From positions 21,264 through 85,263 of the forward strand of contig NCGC01000001.1 in NCBI GenBank assembly GCA_002281475.1: a stretch of 64,000 bases of DNA, written 5' to 3'. Shown piece after piece: positions 28,090-49,174 of the stretch. Each line of letters begins with the position of its first letter. Within the stretch, counting starts at the first letter, position 1. The notes below the pieces were generated by a model that saw only the letters and a list, made by a program, of their open reading frames with translations, was not told the origin of the DNA and ran no database searches. The DNA is from Methylophilales bacterium 28-44-11. Lineage in GTDB: Bacteria; Pseudomonadota; Gammaproteobacteria; Burkholderiales; Methylophilaceae. A program made the translations under genes and the position numbers.

Positions 28090-28563
28090 TTATTTAACGT
28101 CTAAGAGTTCTACATCAAAGATTAAAGTAGCATTTGGCGGAATCACACCACCTGCACCACGTGCGCCGTATCCCATTTCTGGTGGAATGATTAAAGTGCG
28201 TTTACCGCCAATTTTCATTCCAGCAAATCCCTCATCCCAACCTTGAATCACTTGGCCACCGCCTAAAAAGAAATTAAACGGCTCTTTTCTATCGACACTG
28301 CTGTCAAATTTTTTGCCTTTGCTGTCATCTGCTGCTGGGTCATACAACCAGCCAGTGTAATGCACGGTGACATTAAAACCACTTTCCGCCTCGCGGCCAG
28401 TGCCTACTTGTGTATCAATCTTTTGTAACTCTGTTATTTGCGCGGTCATTGCTGGTTTTCCTAGTTGCGTTGTGTTGTTTGTTGAAGTCGTTTCTGCTTG
28501 ACAGCCTGTCACCATAATTACGGCGCATAAGCTTAAGAGCCATTTACTTTGAATGCGTTTCAT
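28090..28563 (-). CDS. FKBP-type peptidyl-prolyl isomerase, lipoprotein
   Basis: lipobox VTGC; VHYTGWL, FDSS, VIQGWDEG, IPPNATLIFDVEL. Confidence 0.95.
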   Translation of the reverse strand: MKRIQSKWLLSLCAVIMVTGCQAETTSTNNTTQLGKPAMTAQITELQKIDTQVGTGREAESGFNVTVHYTGWLYDPAADDSKGKKFDSSVDRKEPFNFFLGGGQVIQGWDEGFAGMKIGGKRTLIIPPEMGYGARGAGGVIPPNATLIFDVELLDVK

Positions 28564-39837: not shown

Positions 39838-40703
39838 TTACTTTTTTAACTTTTTATTCTTACGAACACTTTTTGGCGGAGGCGCCTCATCTTGCTCACC
39901 ATCGTCCTCCTCACCTTGCACCGCTAAATTGCCACCTGCGCCAAGGCCACCTTTCACCGTTTGTGTTTTGTTGTCTTTGACTGCGCGCACAATATTATTG
40001 TATGTATCAGTAAATGCCGCCACAATCACTTTACCTCTTGGGGTTTTAGAATATCCGCCAGCCGTAACGCCTAAAGAGCTCCTAAATGCACCGCCAAATA
40101 TACTGTAATCTGTATTTTGGCGCTACCTTCTGCCGATGCCAATTGCACACTTGAACGGTTATCCGATAAGGTTAGCATGGTGCTGGCTTCTACAAACTTA
40201 AGACCACCAGCTAACAAGCCTAGCCAGCCAGCGCCATCACTTGATAGGGCAAATAGGGCTGCACCAACACCACCCGTATCGCTGTTGCTAAAAATGATGG
40301 AAGGATTTATCGCATAATCCGCCGCTACAATTTGACCTTTGTGCAATTTACTAGTATTACGCATCTCGCAAGTGTCATTTAATGCGCGTTCGGTCATGCC
40401 CATTTGCAAGACTGCACCACGGTCCACCAACACGAAGCTGTTGGATTGCTGTACCAGCCACTTCATCACAGGGTCGGTTGAACCCAATATTTAAGTATGT
40501 GTTAATAGGCTGCAACAATCAGAATTTTGATCTTCAATCACCGCTAACGTAGCAATGGGACGATCACAATGTTCTAATTTTGCATTGGCATTCTGTACGT
40601 TGCTACCACCTGCTGAAACAGTTGCTACGGTTTTAGCCCCTGCATCGCCCCATGCTCATCTGCCCAGCACAACTGGCTAGATATGCGTTGTTTATTTAAT
40701 CAT
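39838..40703 (-). pseudogene. fragmented CsgG/HfaB-family lipoprotein gene
   Basis: consecutive fragments in different frames: LASCAGQMSMGDAGAKT..LEHCDRPIATLAVIED / QQSNSFVLVDRG..KGQIVAADY..AEGSAK / GGYSKTP..AAFTDTYNN. Confidence 0.75.
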
Positions 40704-40984
40704 TTAGGAATACAGTTACTGAATGCGTGGCTAGTCATTTACGATGATGTTCCATTTAGCACCATCGTTTAAAGTTTAAATTCTCAGATGTACTTTGATA
40801 TCCAATTCATTGGTATTTAAATTTACATACAAGTGATTACCTTGATAAATTTATATTGCATCTAAGTTAAAATAAGTAATAGATATGATCATTCCATATT
40901 AATATTTGGTTTTAATAATTAAACATCACCATATGATCACTTCCCCACTCTTTTCAACTTATAACCACCTCTTTTGGCATTAAT

Positions 40985-43900
40985 ATGCTTTCTTCCAATC
41001 AAATATCGTTGAATCAAGAAAGGTATCTAATTGCAGAGGAATTTACGCATACTAACTACACGTTAACAGTGAGTTATAGAATAAAAGGCAGTTTAGATTC
41101 AGAGAAGTTATTAGCATGTTTTCAAAGAGTAGTAGATAACAATGATGCGTTAAGAATCAAATTTAGCAAAAATGCTAATGGCGAGATATCCCAACATCTC
41201 ATGTCTAGCAACATCATTAAATACGACCTTCAAACACTTAGTACAGCAAGTCATGCACAAATAAAAGACATTATTCACGATTATTTTTATACTAAAAATA
41301 TAGTATTTGATGTGTTTACCACTAAATGTCAATTGCTTAAAATCAATGAAACTGAACATATTTTAACAATTGGATGCCACCATAGTTTGATGGATGGTCT
41401 TTCCATCGCTGTTCTAATGATGCAACTGGCAAAGGCATGGAATCAAAACAAAACAATACTGACCTCTTCAGGAAAATATCTAGACCTTCTCAATGAAAAT
41501 GGCCTGTTAAATCCATCTCATGAAACATTACAGGTGGTCAGCGCATATTGGAAAAATTATTTATCGAATGCAAATCCGGCAGTCCTTCCAAATGACTACA
41601 AATTAAATAGCCATCATAATGAAGACAAAGCACGCGCAAAACGATTAATTACAAATGAAGTCATTGAAAAAGTCGATGCCTTTGCAAAAATACATGACGT
41701 TTCAAGATTTCATGTGTTTTATTTAGCATTCAAGATACTAATTGCCAAACAAAGCGGAGCTACCGATGTCATCACCTCATTTGAGAGCCACGGCAGACAA
41801 GACTTAAAAAACGCTAGCAGAGCCATTGGTTTATTTTCTAACGCTTTGGCTTTAAGGTTACATGTGAATGACGAAGCGACCATTCACCAACTTTTGAACG
41901 ATTTAAAAATTGATGCTGAACAATGTATTGCACATCAGCTTTACCCTTATCAATACATTATTAAAGATGCCAAGATAAATCCGAAATATTCCTTTAATTG
42001 GTTCCCCAGATATTTACCTCCTAAACTAAATGGCTTGGAAATCACGCAAGAGGAGTTTCTTAACTTACAGTCAAGTTTTGACTTGAATTTACATTGCTAC
42101 ACCTATGATGATGGCATTAGTCTTGAGTTTTTTTATAATCCGACACTGTTTAGCAACAATCGCGTAGAAATTCAGCTGGAGCAAATAGAAAACATCGTCC
42201 AACAAATCATAGCAAACCCAACTCAGAAAATATCAAACGTCAAACTCATTAGCGATCAAGATAAACAATCTTTGCCTGACGTTAATTTAATTTTTGCAGA
42301 AAAAATCAACAAAAGAATAGACGAGGCATTCCTCCAACAAGCTTCAGTAAATCCTCAAAAAATTGCTTTGAAGTACCTAAATTTGGACTGGACATACGAA
42401 GAAGCGGAACAGGTGAGCAACAGGCTGGCGCAACTGCTAATCAACAAAGGGTTAGTGGCTGGAGATAAGGTGGCCATTTTGGGTTTGCGTTGCCCCGCCA
42501 TGATTATGGCTATGTTAGGGTCATTGAGAGCTGGTGCATCGTTCACTGTGTTAAACGCTGCGTATCCTGTCGCAATGATAAAAAATTATTGGGATACGCT
42601 TCATCCAGATTTTTTAATTACTTGTGATCAAGACTTGTCATCGGCTGAATTTAATTTTGTTAAATCACTTGATACAAAACTTGTGCAATTAGATGATGTA
42701 CTGAATATCAATGATTCACGATTAACCTCAGTGGGAGATCAAAAAGACTCCATCCCTCCAGCAACGCCAAACACTACCGCTTATTATTTGTTTACGTCTG
42801 GCACCACTAACGCACCTAAATGTATTGCGACCACACATTCCCCACTCGTACATTTTGTAGATTGGCAGATAGAAAAATTTAAAATAGGTTCAGAAGATCA
42901 GTTTACGTTGCTGTCTGGTATCTCGCATGACCCAGTTTTAAGGGATATTTTTACTGCATTAAGTGCTGGGGCGACCATCCTTATTCCGACAGAGGATGTC
43001 ATCTTTAATCCAGAAATGTTATACCAGTGGCTACTTAAAACTAAACCCACTATTTGTCATACAACGCCTGCAATGAGCAAGCTGATGTATAACGGCTTTA
43101 ACAAAAAAGATTATATTGTTTCTTTAAGAGCCATCTTTTCTGGTGGCGATCGGTTGGAAAGTCAACATATTAAAGAGATGATGACGATGGCTCCAAACGC
43201 CAGCATCATTAATTTTTATGGCGCTTCAGAAACACCGCAAGCCATGGCATACCATCCATTTGATAACGCATCACGAGGAGAAATCATTCCTATTGGCAAG
43301 CCGATTTCAGATACGCAAATTTTGGTGCTTAATCACAATCTTAACCCTGTGGGGTTATTTGAAATCGGCCAAATAGCGGTCAGAACAAAGTATCTTTCTG
43401 AAGGGTATGTTTCTACGCAGAACACAGAACATTCAGAAAATAAAAAGGCTTATTTAAAGGATTTATTCTCTGATGACCCAGAGATAAACATTTATTTGAC
43501 TGGTGATAATGGCTATTTCAGAGCTGATGGCAGTGCAGTATTTTTAGGTCGCAATGATGATGAAATAAAAATCAGAGGTCACCGAATCAATTTAAACGTC
43601 ATTAACAACAACATTAAAGTGATTCCTTTTGTTGAGGAAGCCTTTACATTTGTAGTGGATGATATCAGTGCCTCTACTGACAAAAAACGTTTGGTTGCCT
43701 ACGTACAAAAAAGTAAAACCTCTAACATGACCGCCATTGAGATTCGCAATAAGCTTTCTGAGTTATTGCCTAGCTACATGTTGCCCAGCCATTTTGTGTT
43801 TATTGAACAACTGCCCCTACTGCCCAATGGAAAAGTAGACCGGAAAAAACTGATTTCTACCTATATTGAACATGACAGTATTAGGTTAAATAAACACATT

Positions 43901-45109
43901 GCAGGCAGAAATGAGGTAGAAAATAATCTCATTTATTCATGGGCAAAAATTTTAAACATCAACCCGAGACAAGTGAGTGCTAAAGACAGTTTTACCACCC
44001 TAGATGGAGATTCTCTCTCCTTCATTCAGGCCTCATTAGTGTTAGAGCGTGAAATTGGAAAGATTCCTGAGGGTTGGCAATCACTCTCGATCGAAAAACT
44101 AGCAGAAATCAGTTATCAAGAACAAAAAAAACTAGATTTTCATACCGAAGTGTTGTTTCGTGCGATCGCCATTATTTTGGTTGTGATTGGTCACTTTTGG
44201 ATGGGTAATACCAACAAGCAGATAGAAGAACTATTTATTAATGCAACTTCTGCCTTACTGTTAATTGCAGGCTTCACATTTGCCAACTTTCCGATGAAGT
44301 CTATTCAGTACAAAAATAATATCTCACCTATTCTAAAAACAATCATACGCATTGCAGTACCAACCTTTTTAGTGACGCTGGTGCATGTTATTTATCGGTC
44401 AGATTATTCAATCAGTAAATTATTGTTTTTTGATAACTTTCACTGGGCACAATCACCCTATTGGTTTATTGAAGTATTGCTCCAGACGTTATTACTGGTT
44501 GCAATCATTTTTTCATTTAAACGCATACGGGCATTTGCAATTAAAACACCTTACCATTTTGGATTGATATCTCTATTTATATTTGCTCTTGCTGGCATGA
44601 TAATTCCATATTTTTGGTCACCTAATGACCTTAATCCTATGCAATTACCCCACATGAAGTCGTGGTTGTTTTTCTTTGGATGGTGCATTTTTTACATACA
44701 AGATAATCAACAAAAACTCACAATGGCAGCACTTGGCGTGATATTACCTATCATGATATTAGGTCAAATTAGTGTGCTTACATCCCTCTGTACATTACTT
44801 TTGATTTATATGCCAAAAATCAACATACCAAAAACGAAGCTAACCAGTGTATTGCATATGGTGATATACGCTGTGGCTTCTGCATCCCTTTATATCTACA
44901 TCACCCATATGCAATTTAGAGCGGTTCTTCACGCAATCGGATTTGATCAGTTTATATTGATTGATGTTGCAGTTGGTTTAGCGGGTGGCGTTTTGGTTCA
45001 CTATATTTGGCATTCCTTGATAGCTTCTACAGCAAGAAAAGTTGTGTCGCATATCAAAAACAAAGTAAATCTAATCAGCACTAAATTGGTGGGCAGGCGT
45101 TTGAGCTGA
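40985..45109 (+). CDS. single-module NRPS-like protein: condensation, adenylation, thiolation and C-terminal acyltransferase-3 membrane domain
   Basis: HHSLMDG; FTSGTTNAPK, YGASE, TGD, KIRGHRI, NGKVDR; LDGDSL; FRAIAIILVVIGH..SLYIYITH multi-TM tail. Confidence 0.88.
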   Translation: MLSSNQISLNQERYLIAEEFTHTNYTLTVSYRIKGSLDSEKLLACFQRVVDNNDALRIKFSKNANGEISQHLMSSNIIKYDLQTLSTASHAQIKDIIHDYFYTKNIVFDVFTTKCQLLKINETEHILTIGCHHSLMDGLSIAVLMMQLAKAWNQNKTILTSSGKYLDLLNENGLLNPSHETLQVVSAYWKNYLSNANPAVLPNDYKLNSHHNEDKARAKRLITNEVIEKVDAFAKIHDVSRFHVFYLAFKILIAKQSGATDVITSFESHGRQDLKNASRAIGLFSNALALRLHVNDEATIHQLLNDLKIDAEQCIAHQLYPYQYIIKDAKINPKYSFNWFPRYLPPKLNGLEITQEEFLNLQSSFDLNLHCYTYDDGISLEFFYNPTLFSNNRVEIQLEQIENIVQQIIANPTQKISNVKLISDQDKQSLPDVNLIFAEKINKRIDEAFLQQASVNPQKIALKYLNLDWTYEEAEQVSNRLAQLLINKGLVAGDKVAILGLRCPAMIMAMLGSLRAGASFTVLNAAYPVAMIKNYWDTLHPDFLITCDQDLSSAEFNFVKSLDTKLVQLDDVLNINDSRLTSVGDQKDSIPPATPNTTAYYLFTSGTTNAPKCIATTHSPLVHFVDWQIEKFKIGSEDQFTLLSGISHDPVLRDIFTALSAGATILIPTEDVIFNPEMLYQWLLKTKPTICHTTPAMSKLMYNGFNKKDYIVSLRAIFSGGDRLESQHIKEMMTMAPNASIINFYGASETPQAMAYHPFDNASRGEIIPIGKPISDTQILVLNHNLNPVGLFEIGQIAVRTKYLSEGYVSTQNTEHSENKKAYLKDLFSDDPEINIYLTGDNGYFRADGSAVFLGRNDDEIKIRGHRINLNVINNNIKVIPFVEEAFTFVVDDISASTDKKRLVAYVQKSKTSNMTAIEIRNKLSELLPSYMLPSHFVFIEQLPLLPNGKVDRKKLISTYIEHDSIRLNKHIAGRNEVENNLIYSWAKILNINPRQVSAKDSFTTLDGDSLSFIQASLVLEREIGKIPEGWQSLSIEKLAEISYQEQKKLDFHTEVLFRAIAIILVVIGHFWMGNTNKQIEELFINATSALLLIAGFTFANFPMKSIQYKNNISPILKTIIRIAVPTFLVTLVHVIYRSDYSISKLLFFDNFHWAQSPYWFIEVLLQTLLLVAIIFSFKRIRAFAIKTPYHFGLISLFIFALAGMIIPYFWSPNDLNPMQLPHMKSWLFFFGWCIFYIQDNQQKLTMAALGVILPIMILGQISVLTSLCTLLLIYMPKINIPKTKLTSVLHMVIYAVASASLYIYITHMQFRAVLHAIGFDQFILIDVAVGLAGGVLVHYIWHSLIASTARKVVSHIKNKVNLISTKLVGRRLS

Positions 45110-46305: not shown

Positions 46306-48270
46306 ATGGATACCGACACAATCTTATCTGGCCTCAATAATAAACAACTGGAAGCCGTTACCCTCCCCCAGCAATCTGCATTGATTTTAGCGGGAGCCGG
46401 CAGTGGAAAAACCCGAGTACTCACAACCCGCATTGCTTGGTTGATTCAAACTGGACAAGTATCACCGATGGGGTTAATGGCAGTGACCTTTACCAATAAG
46501 GCCGCCAAAGAAATGCTGACCCGTCTGACAGCTATGTTGCCGATAAACACACGCGGCATGTGGGCTGGTACCTTCCACGGTCTATGTAACAGGCTATTGC
46601 GCGCTCATTATCGCGAAGCGGGGTTACCCAGTACCTTTCAAATTTTAGATACGTCTGATCAGTTATCTAGCATCAAACGCTTAATGAAACTGTTAAATGT
46701 GGATGACGAGAAATATCCGCCCAAGCAGGTGCAAGGCTATATCAATAGTTGTAAAGAAGAAGGCTTACGCGCGCATGCGGTGGATGCCTACGATGCACAC
46801 TCGCAAAAATTGCGTGAAATTTACGAAGAGTATGACAAACAGTGCAACCGTGAAGGCGTAGCCGATTTTGCTGAATTGCTTTTGCGCTGCTACGAATTGT
46901 TAGAGCGCGATACACATATTCGCCAGCATTACCAAAGTCGCTTTCACTATATCTTGGTGGATGAGTTTCAAGATACCAATCGTTTACAGTATTTATGGTT
47001 GAAGCTATTGGCGGGTACTAGCAATTGTATTTTTGCTGTGGGTGATGATGATCAATCCATCTATGGTTTCCGCGGTGCACGTGTGGGTAATATGCGCGAT
47101 TTCGAGTCTGATTTTCATGTGCAAAACATCGTCAAACTAGAAGAAAACTATCGTTCGCATAGCAATATTTTAGATGCCGCTAACGCCATTATTTCGCACA
47201 ATAAAAATCGTTTAGGTAAAAACTTATGGACCACGGCAGGCAAAGGTGAGCCTGTGCGCATCTATGAAGCTTATAACGATACGGATGAAGCACAGTTTAT
47301 TGTCGATGAAGTGAATATGCTGCAAAACGAAGGCATGCGTTTGGGTGACATGGCGTTGCTGTATCGCAGTAATGCGCAATCGCGCATTCTTGAACATACC
47401 CTATTCTCAGCGAATATCCCTTACCGCGTGTATGGCGGCTTGCGATTTTTTGAACGTGCAGAAATCAAGCATGCGTTGGCGTATATGCGCTTAGTAGCTA
47501 ACGCCAATGACGATACCGCTTTATTACGTGTCATCAACTTTCCAGCCCGTGGCATTGGTGCGCGTAGCTTGGAGCAACTGCAAGAGGCTGCCCGGCAGCA
47601 AAATTGTAGCTTATGGCAAGCCGCTATCAATAAAGTCGGAAACGGAACCCTAGGTGGTAAAGGGATAGATGGGTTTGTTGGATTGATTCGTGAGATGGTA
47701 AATCAAGCCTATGGCATCACCTTGCCAGAACTTGCAGAACTTGCGGCGACGATGTCTGGCTTAAAAGCCCATTACCAATTAGACAAAGAAGGTGAAGACC
47801 GTATTGCCAACTTAGAAGAGTTGGTGACCGCCGCTGTAGCGTTTAGCAATCAGGATTTTGGCAATCACAACAATGTGGAAGAAGACGCTGATTTACTTAC
47901 ACAATTTTTAAACCATGCCAGCTTAGAAGCCGGTGAGCATCAGGCAGATGTTGGCCGTGAAGCCTTGCAATTGATGACAGTGCACGCCGCCAAAGGCTTG
48001 GAATTTAAAGCCGTATTTATTGGTGGTGTAGAAGAAGGCCTGTTTCCCCATGAGCAGAGCAAAAACGAAAACAATGGCGTGGAGGAAGAACGCCGTTTGA
48101 TGTATGTGGCCGTGACGCGGGCGCGGCAACGGCTGTATCTGAGCCACGCTCAAAGTCGCATGCTACATGGGCAAGTGCGTTATGGCATTCCCTCACGGTT
48201 TTTAGATGAAATAATTTGGCGAAGGTGTAGTGGTGAGCTACGAAGGCAATGCCAGCGATCTTGCGATTAA
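46306..48270 (+). CDS. uvrD: DNA helicase II, C-terminally frameshifted; native C-terminus continues in +1 frame to 48337
   Basis: AGAGSGKT, VDEFQD, MTVHAAKGLEF, YVAVTRA; FGEGVV..YAKLEKI* in next frame. Confidence 0.9.
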   Translation: MDTDTILSGLNNKQLEAVTLPQQSALILAGAGSGKTRVLTTRIAWLIQTGQVSPMGLMAVTFTNKAAKEMLTRLTAMLPINTRGMWAGTFHGLCNRLLRAHYREAGLPSTFQILDTSDQLSSIKRLMKLLNVDDEKYPPKQVQGYINSCKEEGLRAHAVDAYDAHSQKLREIYEEYDKQCNREGVADFAELLLRCYELLERDTHIRQHYQSRFHYILVDEFQDTNRLQYLWLKLLAGTSNCIFAVGDDDQSIYGFRGARVGNMRDFESDFHVQNIVKLEENYRSHSNILDAANAIISHNKNRLGKNLWTTAGKGEPVRIYEAYNDTDEAQFIVDEVNMLQNEGMRLGDMALLYRSNAQSRILEHTLFSANIPYRVYGGLRFFERAEIKHALAYMRLVANANDDTALLRVINFPARGIGARSLEQLQEAARQQNCSLWQAAINKVGNGTLGGKGIDGFVGLIREMVNQAYGITLPELAELAATMSGLKAHYQLDKEGEDRIANLEELVTAAVAFSNQDFGNHNNVEEDADLLTQFLNHASLEAGEHQADVGREALQLMTVHAAKGLEFKAVFIGGVEEGLFPHEQSKNENNGVEEERRLMYVAVTRARQRLYLSHAQSRMLHGQVRYGIPSRFLDEIIWRRCSGELRRQCQRSCD

Positions 48271-48376
48271 GATTAATTTTGGGCGAGAAGGCTTAAAAAC
48301 CTTAATGATGGAATATGCAAAACTAGAGAAAATCTAAAAAAAGTGTGTAAAACACTTTGAATTGATTGGAAAGAAA

Positions 48377-49174
48377 TTAAGCCCCCTCTACTGGCGCCGC
48401 TCTAAAAACGTCTCGATAACTCACATATTGCAAAGCAAACATCAGTGCAGTTGCCAGTAATAAACAACCAAATACCAGCATTGGCATTAACGCTTGTGCT
48501 AAAACTGGTACAAGCGCGCCAAGAATGCCTATGATCAATCCTGCTGCAAGCATTAGTCCCATAATGCCTGCCGACAATACTAACCAAGCGGCGCCCATGG
48601 CAATGGTATATTGCAAAACGCCTGCGATGCTTGATTTGATCGCATTCACCAGCGTGTAATTATTGACCGCAATCAACACAGGGGAAAACCATGTGGCGAC
48701 GAACAAAGGTAACAATAACAACAACATTTTGAGCATAAAGGGACCGAATTTACCCATGAATTTTTCATATTCTGTCTCACTCATGGCGGCACCTTTGTCC
48801 GCAAAGCTCATTAAGCCTTGAATGTCAGAGTTCAGCACATAGGTGGCCAAGGTGGCATACACTAAACAACCCAAGCCTAGTAACATCAATAAAGTAAATT
48901 TCGGTTGGATTTTTGCCAAGACTGCTTGGACTGTCTCTTGTTTACCCATTTCTGCATTGCGATACAGCATGACAGCAAAGGCTATAAATACTGGCCAAAT
49001 CAATACAGTAAGCAATGCAAATATGCCTAGCCCTGGAATCGATGGCAACATCATAAAAATGCCCACGTAGGAAATAGCCAACAACATCCATTTAGAGGGT
49101 TGAGTTTTAAACAAGGCTACACTTTCTTTTACCCAACTTAAGCCAGTTTTGGTACGTGATTCTAAGATAGCCAT
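48377..49174 (-). CDS. BPSS1780 family membrane protein
   Basis: GLSWVKE..LFK..W, ATWFSPVL, YVSYRDVF; follows thrB. Confidence 0.8.
   Translation of the reverse strand: MAILESRTKTGLSWVKESVALFKTQPSKWMLLAISYVGIFMMLPSIPGLGIFALLTVLIWPVFIAFAVMLYRNAEMGKQETVQAVLAKIQPKFTLLMLLGLGCLVYATLATYVLNSDIQGLMSFADKGAAMSETEYEKFMGKFGPFMLKMLLLLLPLFVATWFSPVLIAVNNYTLVNAIKSSIAGVLQYTIAMGAAWLVLSAGIMGLMLAAGLIIGILGALVPVLAQALMPMLVFGCLLLATALMFALQYVSYRDVFRAAPVEGA

Follow-up and report, generated by a model that had tools for sequence, protein, structure and literature searches.

The 64,000-nucleotide stretch of Methylophilales bacterium 28-44-11 considered here (hereafter the window) encodes, in a single gene, a protein of 1374 amino acids (P0001) in which a condensation (C), an adenylation (A) and a carrier (T) domain of the nonribosomal peptide synthetase (NRPS) type are fused to a membrane domain of the acyltransferase-3 (AT3) family. 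Our proposal, which we regard as evenly poised between right and wrong, is that P0001 is a self-loading, carrier-fed transmembrane acyltransferase that arose from an NRPS termination module. The open reading frame (ORF), which an earlier reading made from the letters alone (the sequence-only reading) had singled out, was confirmed by ORF call and translation (window:40985-45109(+)). A Pfam scan of P0001 recovered no thioesterase (TE) or reductase domain and identified residues 1054-1346 as AT3, so that the suspected replacement of the canonical release domain by a hydrophobic C-terminal domain holds. Furthermore, the full C-A-T-AT3 architecture is present in nine further protein clusters of ~1370 aa at 51-69% identity (full-length homologues P0002-P0010) and in many more distant ones; the fusion is thus no assembly artefact. 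The catalytic residues H132, H133, D137, G138, S1010, R1059, H1070, E1163 and H1308 are invariant among these C-A-T-AT3 orthologues. The C-A-T part matches the EntF, MxcG and AusA models of NCBIfam end to end, and NCBIfam holds no model for the whole architecture. The carrier serine of the LDGDSL motif lies where that reading had put it (S1010), and the AT3 strings that it quoted (FRAIAIILVVIGH, LLLIAGF, YWFIEV and SLYIYITH) are all present in the protein.

The pair formed by the carrier and the AT3 domain is the conserved evolutionary core of a large family. An exhaustive profile search among 1.84 billion representatives returned 1114 clusters (50% identity) that match T and AT3 together at E<=1e-30. 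Among the best 150 of these 1114 clusters, most are 800-940 aa long (A-T-AT3), some have 380-500 aa (T-AT3 alone) and seven have 1300-1440 aa, five of which are C-A-T-AT3 according to Pfam and one a sulfotransferase-C'-A-T-AT3 fusion. The core was found alone, in A-T-AT3 proteins with A domains of the fatty-acyl or the amino-acid type, and in C-A-T-AT3 proteins, the last of which recur in several lineages. The C-A-T-AT3 architecture is not rare; it represents one branch of a very large T-AT3 family. Matches to the AT3 part included 15 A-T-AT3 clusters of 800-890 aa, and the carrier and AT3 portion was aligned over 25 sequences (10 C-A-T-AT3 and 15 A-T-AT3 clusters). Invariant in all 25 were the carrier residues F1003, L1006, G1008, S1010 and L1011, the linker motif G1025..P1028..W1031, and R1059, H1070, G1096, W1160, F1161, E1163, G1232, H1308 and G1335 of the AT3 domain. 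The carrier itself scores slightly below the Pfam cut-off (PP-binding, PF00550, residues 986-1026, 19.7 bits against 20.8), and its modelled structure compares with peptidyl carrier protein (PCP) domains at Z ~10 and a root mean square deviation (rmsd) of 2.3 A over 73 residues in VIA-align. In databases, family members go by the names 'AMP-binding protein' and 'amino acid adenylation domain-containing protein', and the sole named relative in a scan of genome collections was the metagenome-assembled genome (MAG) 'Betaproteobacteria bacterium Ga0077540'. Further fusions built on the T-AT3 core were seen in P0056 and P0074. One of the two, with 1437 aa, combines a sulfotransferase, a partial C domain, an A domain with a glycine-like code (DILQLGMIWK), T and AT3, and the other, with 1121 aa, is a T-AT3-PhoD phosphatase.

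Several lines of evidence place the C-terminal region in the AT3 family, as the sequence-only reading had claimed. Acyl_transf_3 (PF01757) matches residues 1057-1357 at 4.5e-12, with 46.1 bits against a cut-off of 31, and both hydropathy and the helices of an AlphaFold2 (AF2) model give ~10 transmembrane (TM) helices. A 2022 review of AT3 enzymes (PMC9558356) defines an R/K-x10-H motif in TM1 (OafA/OafB), an RXXR motif in the first cytoplasmic loop (Oac) and a third motif, V-x-x-F-F-x-(I/V/L)-S-G-(F/W/Y) (Lag-1). The first is present in P0001 as R1059 and H1070. The fused T domain, which is cytoplasmic, and the positive-inside rule served to predict the orientation of the AT3 domain, with 19 Lys or Arg residues counted on predicted cytoplasmic segments against 4 on periplasmic ones, and the resulting N-in topology fits a cytoplasmic carrier. 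Conservation among the 10 orthologues is uneven. The predicted periplasmic loop between TM3 and TM4 (1137-1157) is the best-conserved segment outside the TM helices, with 71% of its positions invariant, and the loop between TM5 and TM6 (1211-1223), with a 'PH' consensus across T-AT3 proteins, reaches 54%, compared with 28% for the C domain and 32% for the A domain. Selection is thus strongest on the presumed outer face of the membrane domain.

The structural models agree with this assignment. The AF2 model covers residues 972-1374 and was built from a 62-sequence alignment; its mean predicted local distance difference test score (pLDDT) is 93.3 and its predicted TM-score (pTM) 0.91. It shows T and AT3 as a single rigid body, with a PCP four-helix bundle packed on the membrane helical bundle and a short beta-bridge from the linker (residues 1049-1053) to a cytoplasmic loop (residues 1278-1282). 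A-T-AT3 clusters in the ESM Atlas are modelled with the shape seen in the T-AT3 part of P0001 (TM-score 0.74-0.82). Among known structures, VIA-align paired the model with HGSNAT at Z 12.3-13.2 (8jkv_A, Z 13.2, 272 aligned residues, rmsd 4.5; 8tu9_B, the HGSNAT-acetyl-CoA complex, Z 12.3) and with GWT1, the GPI inositol acyltransferase (Z 9.5), all Z values that lie near the range possible for any helical bundles. In Foldseek the membrane domain had no match at E<=0.001, human HGSNAT being the sole meaningful one below that stringency (probability 1.0, TM-score ~0.4), and a sequence search of the PDB with the AT3 part gave no match. HGSNAT and GWT1 take an acyl group from cytosolic acyl-coenzyme A (acyl-CoA) and deliver it on the opposite side of the membrane.

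The A domain is recognized by AMP-binding (PF00501, residues 451-808, 4e-59) and AMP-binding_C (PF13193, residues 880-950). TIGR01733 scores 288 bits on it, under its own 317-bit cut-off, and among NCBIfam models the Lys2-like TIGR03443 (alpha-aminoadipate reductase, 2e-101) ranks second behind the generic NRPS model. The specificity code reads DPRHFGFQAK (D649, P650, R653, H692, F718, G720, F744, Q752, A753 and K950). The register was validated with control modules, for which the same procedure gives DILQLGLIWK (Gly), DFWNIGMVHK (Thr), DVGEIGSIDK (Orn) and DLTKIGEVGK (Asn). Nine of the 10 orthologues keep the code unchanged, and exactly the same code recurs in 61 of the retrieved proteins across three architectures, namely A-T-AT3 (~870-1060 aa), C-A-T-AT3 (~1330-1440 aa) and two-module NRPSs ending in a thioesterase. 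Since Asp235 and Lys517 are kept (D649 and K950), the substrate should be an amino acid. To our knowledge, the code equals no canonical one. Its start, D-[P/A]-R-H, is shared with the second A domain of McyB, for which we read DARHVGIFVK in P0253, a protein named McyB by the Joint Genome Institute (JGI). McyB-A2 installs the iso-linked (beta-carboxyl) methyl-aspartate of microcystin, and we take the same start to be present in the D-Glu domain of McyE and in the aminoadipate domains of Lys2 and ACVS. Given the likeness of the D-P-R-H start to domains for acidic amino acids that are linked through their side chains, our working guess is that the A domain would activate an acidic amino acid at its side-chain carboxyl. 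The first A-T-AT3 relatives to be found (P0011-P0025) have A domains of another kind, which lack Asp235, are acyl-CoA-ligase-like and match TIGR03098 or FadD models best.

The C domain carries an intact catalytic motif, HHSLMDG, at residues 132-138 and exactly at nucleotides 41378-41398, as previously reported, and H132, H133, D137 and G138 are invariant in 10 of 10 orthologues. An N-terminal docking region is lacking, as the C1 motif already begins at residue 8. Among the retrieved sequences, this domain groups first with the C domains of other C-A-T-AT3 proteins (23-65% identity). Behind these come elongation C domains from inside two-module NRPSs (P0182 and P0178 among them), each placed ahead of a DPRH-code A domain, with ~25% identity and 130-137 bits. 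In the PDB, the best sequence match is TycC6 with 75 bits, compared with 46 bits for the starter C domain of SrfA-A. These affinities do not support the starter-type C domain that had been suggested for N-acylation; they argue for an elongation type, and C-A(DPRH)-T is an evolutionary unit that ends in either TE or AT3.

The mechanism that we propose begins with a Sfp-like phosphopantetheinyl transferase (PPTase), which would modify Ser1010, after which the A domain would adenylate one amino acid and bind it as a thioester. Loading on the protein's own carrier is a step that we strongly infer from the intact motifs, and the D-P-R-H start suggests that the residue would be an acidic one held via its side-chain carboxyl. 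In the second and least certain step, the C domain may join a donor to the free amine of the tethered residue. This donor could be an acyl-CoA or an acyl carrier protein (ACP) thioester, options raised because no other NRPS module was found in the 88%-complete genome, or an unassembled partner, or nothing at all. The pantetheine arm of the carrier, which is the chemical business end of CoA, would then enter the AT3 domain through an opening on its cytoplasmic side, close to R1059 and H1070; family conservation and the fold point to such a hand-over, as the T-AT3 unit is conserved and was modelled as rigid. Finally, the AT3 domain would relay the (acyl)aminoacyl group across the inner membrane and deliver it at the periplasmic loops, a route that agrees with the topology, the conservation of the outer loops and the resemblance to the HGSNAT fold. 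The acceptor would most likely be a glycan hydroxyl, whether of exopolysaccharide (EPS), lipopolysaccharide (LPS), a periplasmic glucan or peptidoglycan, and possibly a lipid; what suggests a glycan is solely the habits of the AT3 family and the contexts of a minority of relatives. The AT3 domain would take the thioesterase's place as release domain, a position suggested by the two-module NRPSs in which C-A(DPRH)-T is followed by TE.

The sequence-only reading had cast the AT3 domain as a transmembrane release domain that acts on LPS, EPS or a surface glycoprotein. The first half of that claim is plausible and has partial support in a genuine AT3 domain in the TE position, its rigid coupling to T in the model and the conserved loops, whereas the transfer to such an acceptor is one that we only infer. 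The narrower version, in which the AT3 domain is a true transmembrane NRPS release domain, accepts the carrier arm instead of CoA and attaches a side-chain-activated acidic residue, or an N-acyl or dipeptidyl form of it, by an ester bond to a periplasmic or surface polymer, falls somewhat short of an even chance in our judgement.

Several observations weigh against this interpretation. Characterised AT3 enzymes use acyl-CoA and not carrier proteins (PMC9558356). At the RXXR position only R1122 is conserved, with K1118 four residues upstream (K-x3-R), so that the motif is half kept, and the Lag-1 motif is replaced by ..LLLIAGF, in which its serine is Ala1095, in keeping with the AG(F/Y) consensus of the T-AT3 family. 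Because the motif serine is alanine family-wide and RXXR is half kept, the chemistry of the T-AT3 membrane domains may differ from that of classical AT3 enzymes. The elongation-type C domain has no visible donor in the genome. Moreover, no glycan genes flank the P0001 gene or its orthologues in four other contexts, and most of the C-A-T-AT3 and same-code A-T-AT3 loci that were examined lack glycan neighbours.

The search for polysaccharide loci around homologues, which had been proposed as a check, gave a divided answer: several A-T-AT3 relatives lie in such loci, and P0001 and its orthologues do not. In locus L019, GT2 (glycosyltransferase family 2), Wza and Wzx genes surround an A-T-AT3 relative that directly follows a C-A-T-TE gene. 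Other relatives have Bac_transf and hexapeptide transferase neighbours (L022), GT2, GT4 and sulfotransferase neighbours (L023), GT4 on either side (L034), or a hexapeptide transferase and a Wza-like exporter (L035). The remaining contexts are unconnected with polysaccharides and include an ABC importer (L025), a GDPD gene (L021) and a GH25 muramidase (L050), the others being unrelated genes. Two C-A-T-AT3 loci have NRPS-type neighbours: an A-T didomain protein together with an ACR_tran (AcrB-type) pump in L046, and a 1342-aa homologue of the L046 A-T protein in L038. When 156 neighbour ORFs from 23 metagenome loci were compared with one another by BLAST, all against all, the only recurrent family was that of other A-T/NRPS genes (4 loci). 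As separate observations, the A-T-AT3 gene of L019 (L019:3961-10442, Ga0255812_10041723) overlaps the end of the C-A-T-TE NRPS gene by 4 nt, its A domain is of the acyl-CoA-ligase type, and the EPS locus comprises GT2, a Wza-like exporter, a Wzx-like flippase and hexapeptide transferases; L019 is a split arrangement of related parts. In L025 (L025:4385-10544) and L026, an A-T-AT3 gene of actinobacterial type shares 4 nt with the gene for the ATPase of an ABC importer, whose parts are SBP_bac_1, BPD_transp_1 and FbpC-like.

These contexts bear on the best-surviving alternative, in which the AT3 domain serves for off-loading and export. A tethered N-acyl amino acid, dipeptide or short homo-oligomer would be freed on the periplasmic side to water or a small nucleophile, and the domain would be a thioesterase and exporter embedded in the membrane instead of an enzyme that modifies glycans. 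The TE position that AT3 holds relative to homologous two-module NRPSs, the want of a glycan locus near the gene or its orthologues and the NRPS-type neighbours in L046 and L038, with the pump in the former, all speak for it. There is also a precedent in epsilon-poly-lysine synthetase, presented in two reports as a membrane-bound single-module NRPS with a secreted polymer as its product (PMC8117764; bioRxiv 10.1101/2020.07.24.220772). However, the AT3 enzymes covered in the relevant sections of PMC9558356 transfer acyl groups to acceptors, mostly sugars, and none of them appears there as a hydrolase or exporter. Other members of the family are embedded in EPS loci, and periplasmic loops as strongly conserved as these suggest that a specific acceptor is recognized. 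We therefore regard off-loading and export as unlikely, though worth keeping in view.

In another scenario, the AT3 domain would be an acyl-CoA-dependent tailoring enzyme or a membrane anchor, and the product would leave through the C domain, which would condense it with a free amine or alcohol as VibH does. The acyl-CoA use of characterised AT3 enzymes (PMC9558356) would suit this scenario, as would a C domain that is intact, has no upstream module and could act on a free acceptor. However, release cannot depend on the C domain, because the C-less T-AT3 and A-T-AT3 proteins are the family majority. The T-AT3 linker and interface residues are invariant in a pair that was modelled as rigid, and a mere anchor would not keep R-x10-H and the periplasmic loops. 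Thus, we consider such a role quite improbable.

The genomic setting was examined in the same light. The P0001 gene has housekeeping genes around it: groES/groEL precede it, ung and uvrD follow, and polA lies farther downstream. As had been noted before, genes for tailoring enzymes, MbtH, an exporter or a PPTase are absent from its vicinity. In the genome (2.24 Mb, 88% complete), no C domain besides that of P0001, no upstream or other NRPS module and no MbtH was found. A second NRPS-like A domain on contig C91 was considered as a partner and rejected, as it is an acyl-CoA synthetase among tricarboxylic acid (TCA) cycle and malyl-CoA-type genes. The genome does encode a Sfp-like PPTase of 223 aa on contig C93, and its only other carriers are AcpP and a second ACP beside this PPTase. 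In that locus (L029, G000:C93:50-3358) the Sfp-type PPTase adjoins the small ACP and a fragment of an AMP-dependent ligase, a separate carrier-dependent pathway of the same genome whose PPTase would probably activate Ser1010.

The distribution of the gene is patchy. A search of 200 genomes of the same family, 16 of them of the same genus, revealed no full-length orthologue, and one same-family genome contains a 36%-identical A-T-AT3-like stretch broken by two stop codons. The GC content of the gene is 0.375-0.40 against ~0.44 in the flanks. Orthologues occupy different sites: the P0001 gene and its counterpart in L001 lie between the groEL region and ung, those of L015 and L016 separate ung from uvrD, and in L017 and L018 the gene is elsewhere, beside GGDEF/EAL genes. 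The P0001 gene behaves as a mobile accessory gene. A comparison of five orthologue contexts found no common partner gene, which fits a self-contained system. A horizontally acquired orphan, decaying or non-functional and left over from a larger NRPS cluster, is a very improbable reading of the gene: the divergent GC content, the missing same-family orthologues, the variable insertion site and the lack of an NRPS partner would agree with it, but the 4.1-kb frame is uninterrupted, the catalytic motifs are invariant at 51-69% identity and the same standalone arrangement occurs in many distant lineages. Both this explanation and a tailoring or anchoring role agree poorly with the conservation pattern.

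Table 1. Features of the P0001 gene and its upstream region in window coordinates.
Feature	Position (nt)	Strand	Basis
Whole gene, C-A-T-AT3 fusion (P0001), 1374 aa	40985..45109	+	ORF, Pfam, full-length homologues
Condensation domain, aa 8-430	41006..42274	+	PF00668 at 6e-58
Adenylation domain, aa 451-960	42335..43864	+	PF00501, PF13193
Carrier (T/PCP) domain, aa 975-1040; Ser1010 at nt 44012-44014	43907..44104	+	PF00550 sub-threshold, PCP fold
AT3 domain, aa 1054-1346, 10 TM helices, N-in/C-in (predicted)	44144..45022	+	PF01757, hydropathy, AF2
R1059; H1070	44159-44161; 44192-44194	+	R-x10-H in TM1
Predicted periplasmic loop TM3-TM4, aa 1137-1157	44393..44455	+	Conservation count, inferred topology
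Predicted periplasmic loop TM5-TM6, aa 1211-1223, P1222-H1223 motif	44615..44653	+	Conservation count, topology
Upstream non-coding region, AT-rich	40488..40984	+	Repeat search

Some further features were observed around the gene. An AT-rich palindrome (40807-40836) lies ~130-180 nt before the start codon together with the direct repeats TAAATTTACAT and TAAATTTATAT at 40818-40828 and 40846-40856; this ensemble (40807-40856) is possibly an operator or promoter element. Regulation by Fur was rejected, since the best match to the Fur consensus upstream of the P0001 gene and five orthologues (12/19) is at chance level, and iron-importer genes were not seen beside the P0001 gene. The 1.2-kb stretch from groEL to the P0001 gene (39740-40984) contains only one ORF, of 138 aa (40071-40487(-)) and without a Pfam match. 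No remnant was found there of the genes for a 221-aa unknown protein and an FKBP, which are present in the corresponding gap of L001; an FKBP homologue lies elsewhere in the window, at ~28090-28458. Downstream, the uvrD-like ORF (46306-48270) encodes 654 aa, compared with 712-720 aa in relatives. At its 3' end (48150-48380) the frame shifts after ...PSRFLDEI, ~40 residues found in L001 are missing, and the conserved C-terminal tail (FG.GVVVSYEGNASDLAIKINFG...) resumes in another frame, an anomaly to be explained either by a small frameshifting deletion or by misassembly of the MAG. In L015, a stand-alone AT3 gene of 357 aa (L015:14676-15749) follows uvrD, two genes past the C-A-T-AT3 gene.

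Compared with known systems, P0001 resembles AT3 enzymes (OafA/OafB, Oac, OatA, ExoH/ExoZ, OpgC/MdoC and WecH, and structurally HGSNAT) in PF01757, the 10 TM helices, R/K-x10-H and the HGSNAT fold, as well as in presumably relaying an acyl group, activated as a thioester, out of the cytoplasm to the other side of the membrane. It differs from them in its donor, presumably the fused phosphopantetheinyl carrier and not free acyl-CoA, in its presumed cargo, an amino acid or derivative and not acetyl or succinyl, and in having no SGNH partner domain. No description of a carrier-fused AT3 enzyme, and no characterised C-A-T-AT3 enzyme, was found in the literature searched, which bears out the sequence-only reading on this point. 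The review of the family names fusions to SGNH and alanine racemase only, favours acyl-CoA over an acyl carrier protein as the physiological donor, reports that no AT3 structure is known and poses as a question how the acyl group crosses the membrane (PMC9558356). An AT3 domain to which the donor is tethered would offer a natural, trappable system for studying this crossing, with S1010, R1059 and H1070 as points of access.

With NRPS termination modules of the C-A-T-TE type (EntF and SrfA-C), P0001 shares C-A-T and is nearest to the last module of the same-code two-module enzymes; unlike them, it has a 10-helix AT3 domain instead of the thioesterase, and no upstream module, MbtH or exporter was found for it. 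If the proposal is true, NRPS enzymology would gain a new type of release domain. In epsilon-poly-lysine synthetase (Pls), three soluble C-like domains alternate with the TM helices. P0001 resembles Pls in layout, since Pls is reported to be a single-module (A-T) NRPS whose C-terminal membrane region carries out product release (PMC8117764; bioRxiv 10.1101/2020.07.24.220772). The C-terminal 320 aa of P0001, in contrast, form a compact 10-helix AT3 domain free of soluble inserts, and its C domain is N-terminal.

The uncharacterised A-T-AT3 family shares with P0001 the T-AT3 core with the same invariant residues and, in one sub-branch, the DPRHFGFQAK code; P0001 is itself among the 1114 profile matches. 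Unlike P0011-P0025, P0001 adds an intact C domain, and its A domain is of the NRPS amino-acid type. What is new in P0001 with respect to A-T-AT3 proteins is the C domain, the amino-acid-type A domain with a conserved code and the evolutionary link to TE-terminated modules. The presence of DPRHFGFQAK in three architectures marks an as yet unassigned NRPS substrate specificity. In a family of this size (1114 clusters at E<=1e-30), the characterisation of a single member would allow many genes to be annotated.

Finally, DltABCD (D-alanylation of teichoic acids) and AlmEFG (glycine on Vibrio lipid A) follow the same logic of adenylation, a phosphopantetheinyl carrier and a membrane transferase that acts on the envelope. 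DltB is an MBOAT protein and AlmG is of the LPLAT type. Dlt and Alm consist of separate proteins, whereas P0001 unites all parts in a single chain, uses an AT3 domain and carries a C domain besides, and DltA models match only its A domain, well under their cut-offs; the likeness is thus one of working and not of membership. If true, the narrower version of our proposal would provide Gram-negative bacteria with a CoA-independent, one-protein counterpart of Dlt and, by extension, would suggest a mechanism common to >1000 uncharacterised T-AT3 clusters. It would also mean a new route for amino acids or unusual acyl groups onto bacterial surfaces. Surface aminoacylation, in turn, bears on surface charge, on interactions with phages and antimicrobial peptides, and on EPS properties.

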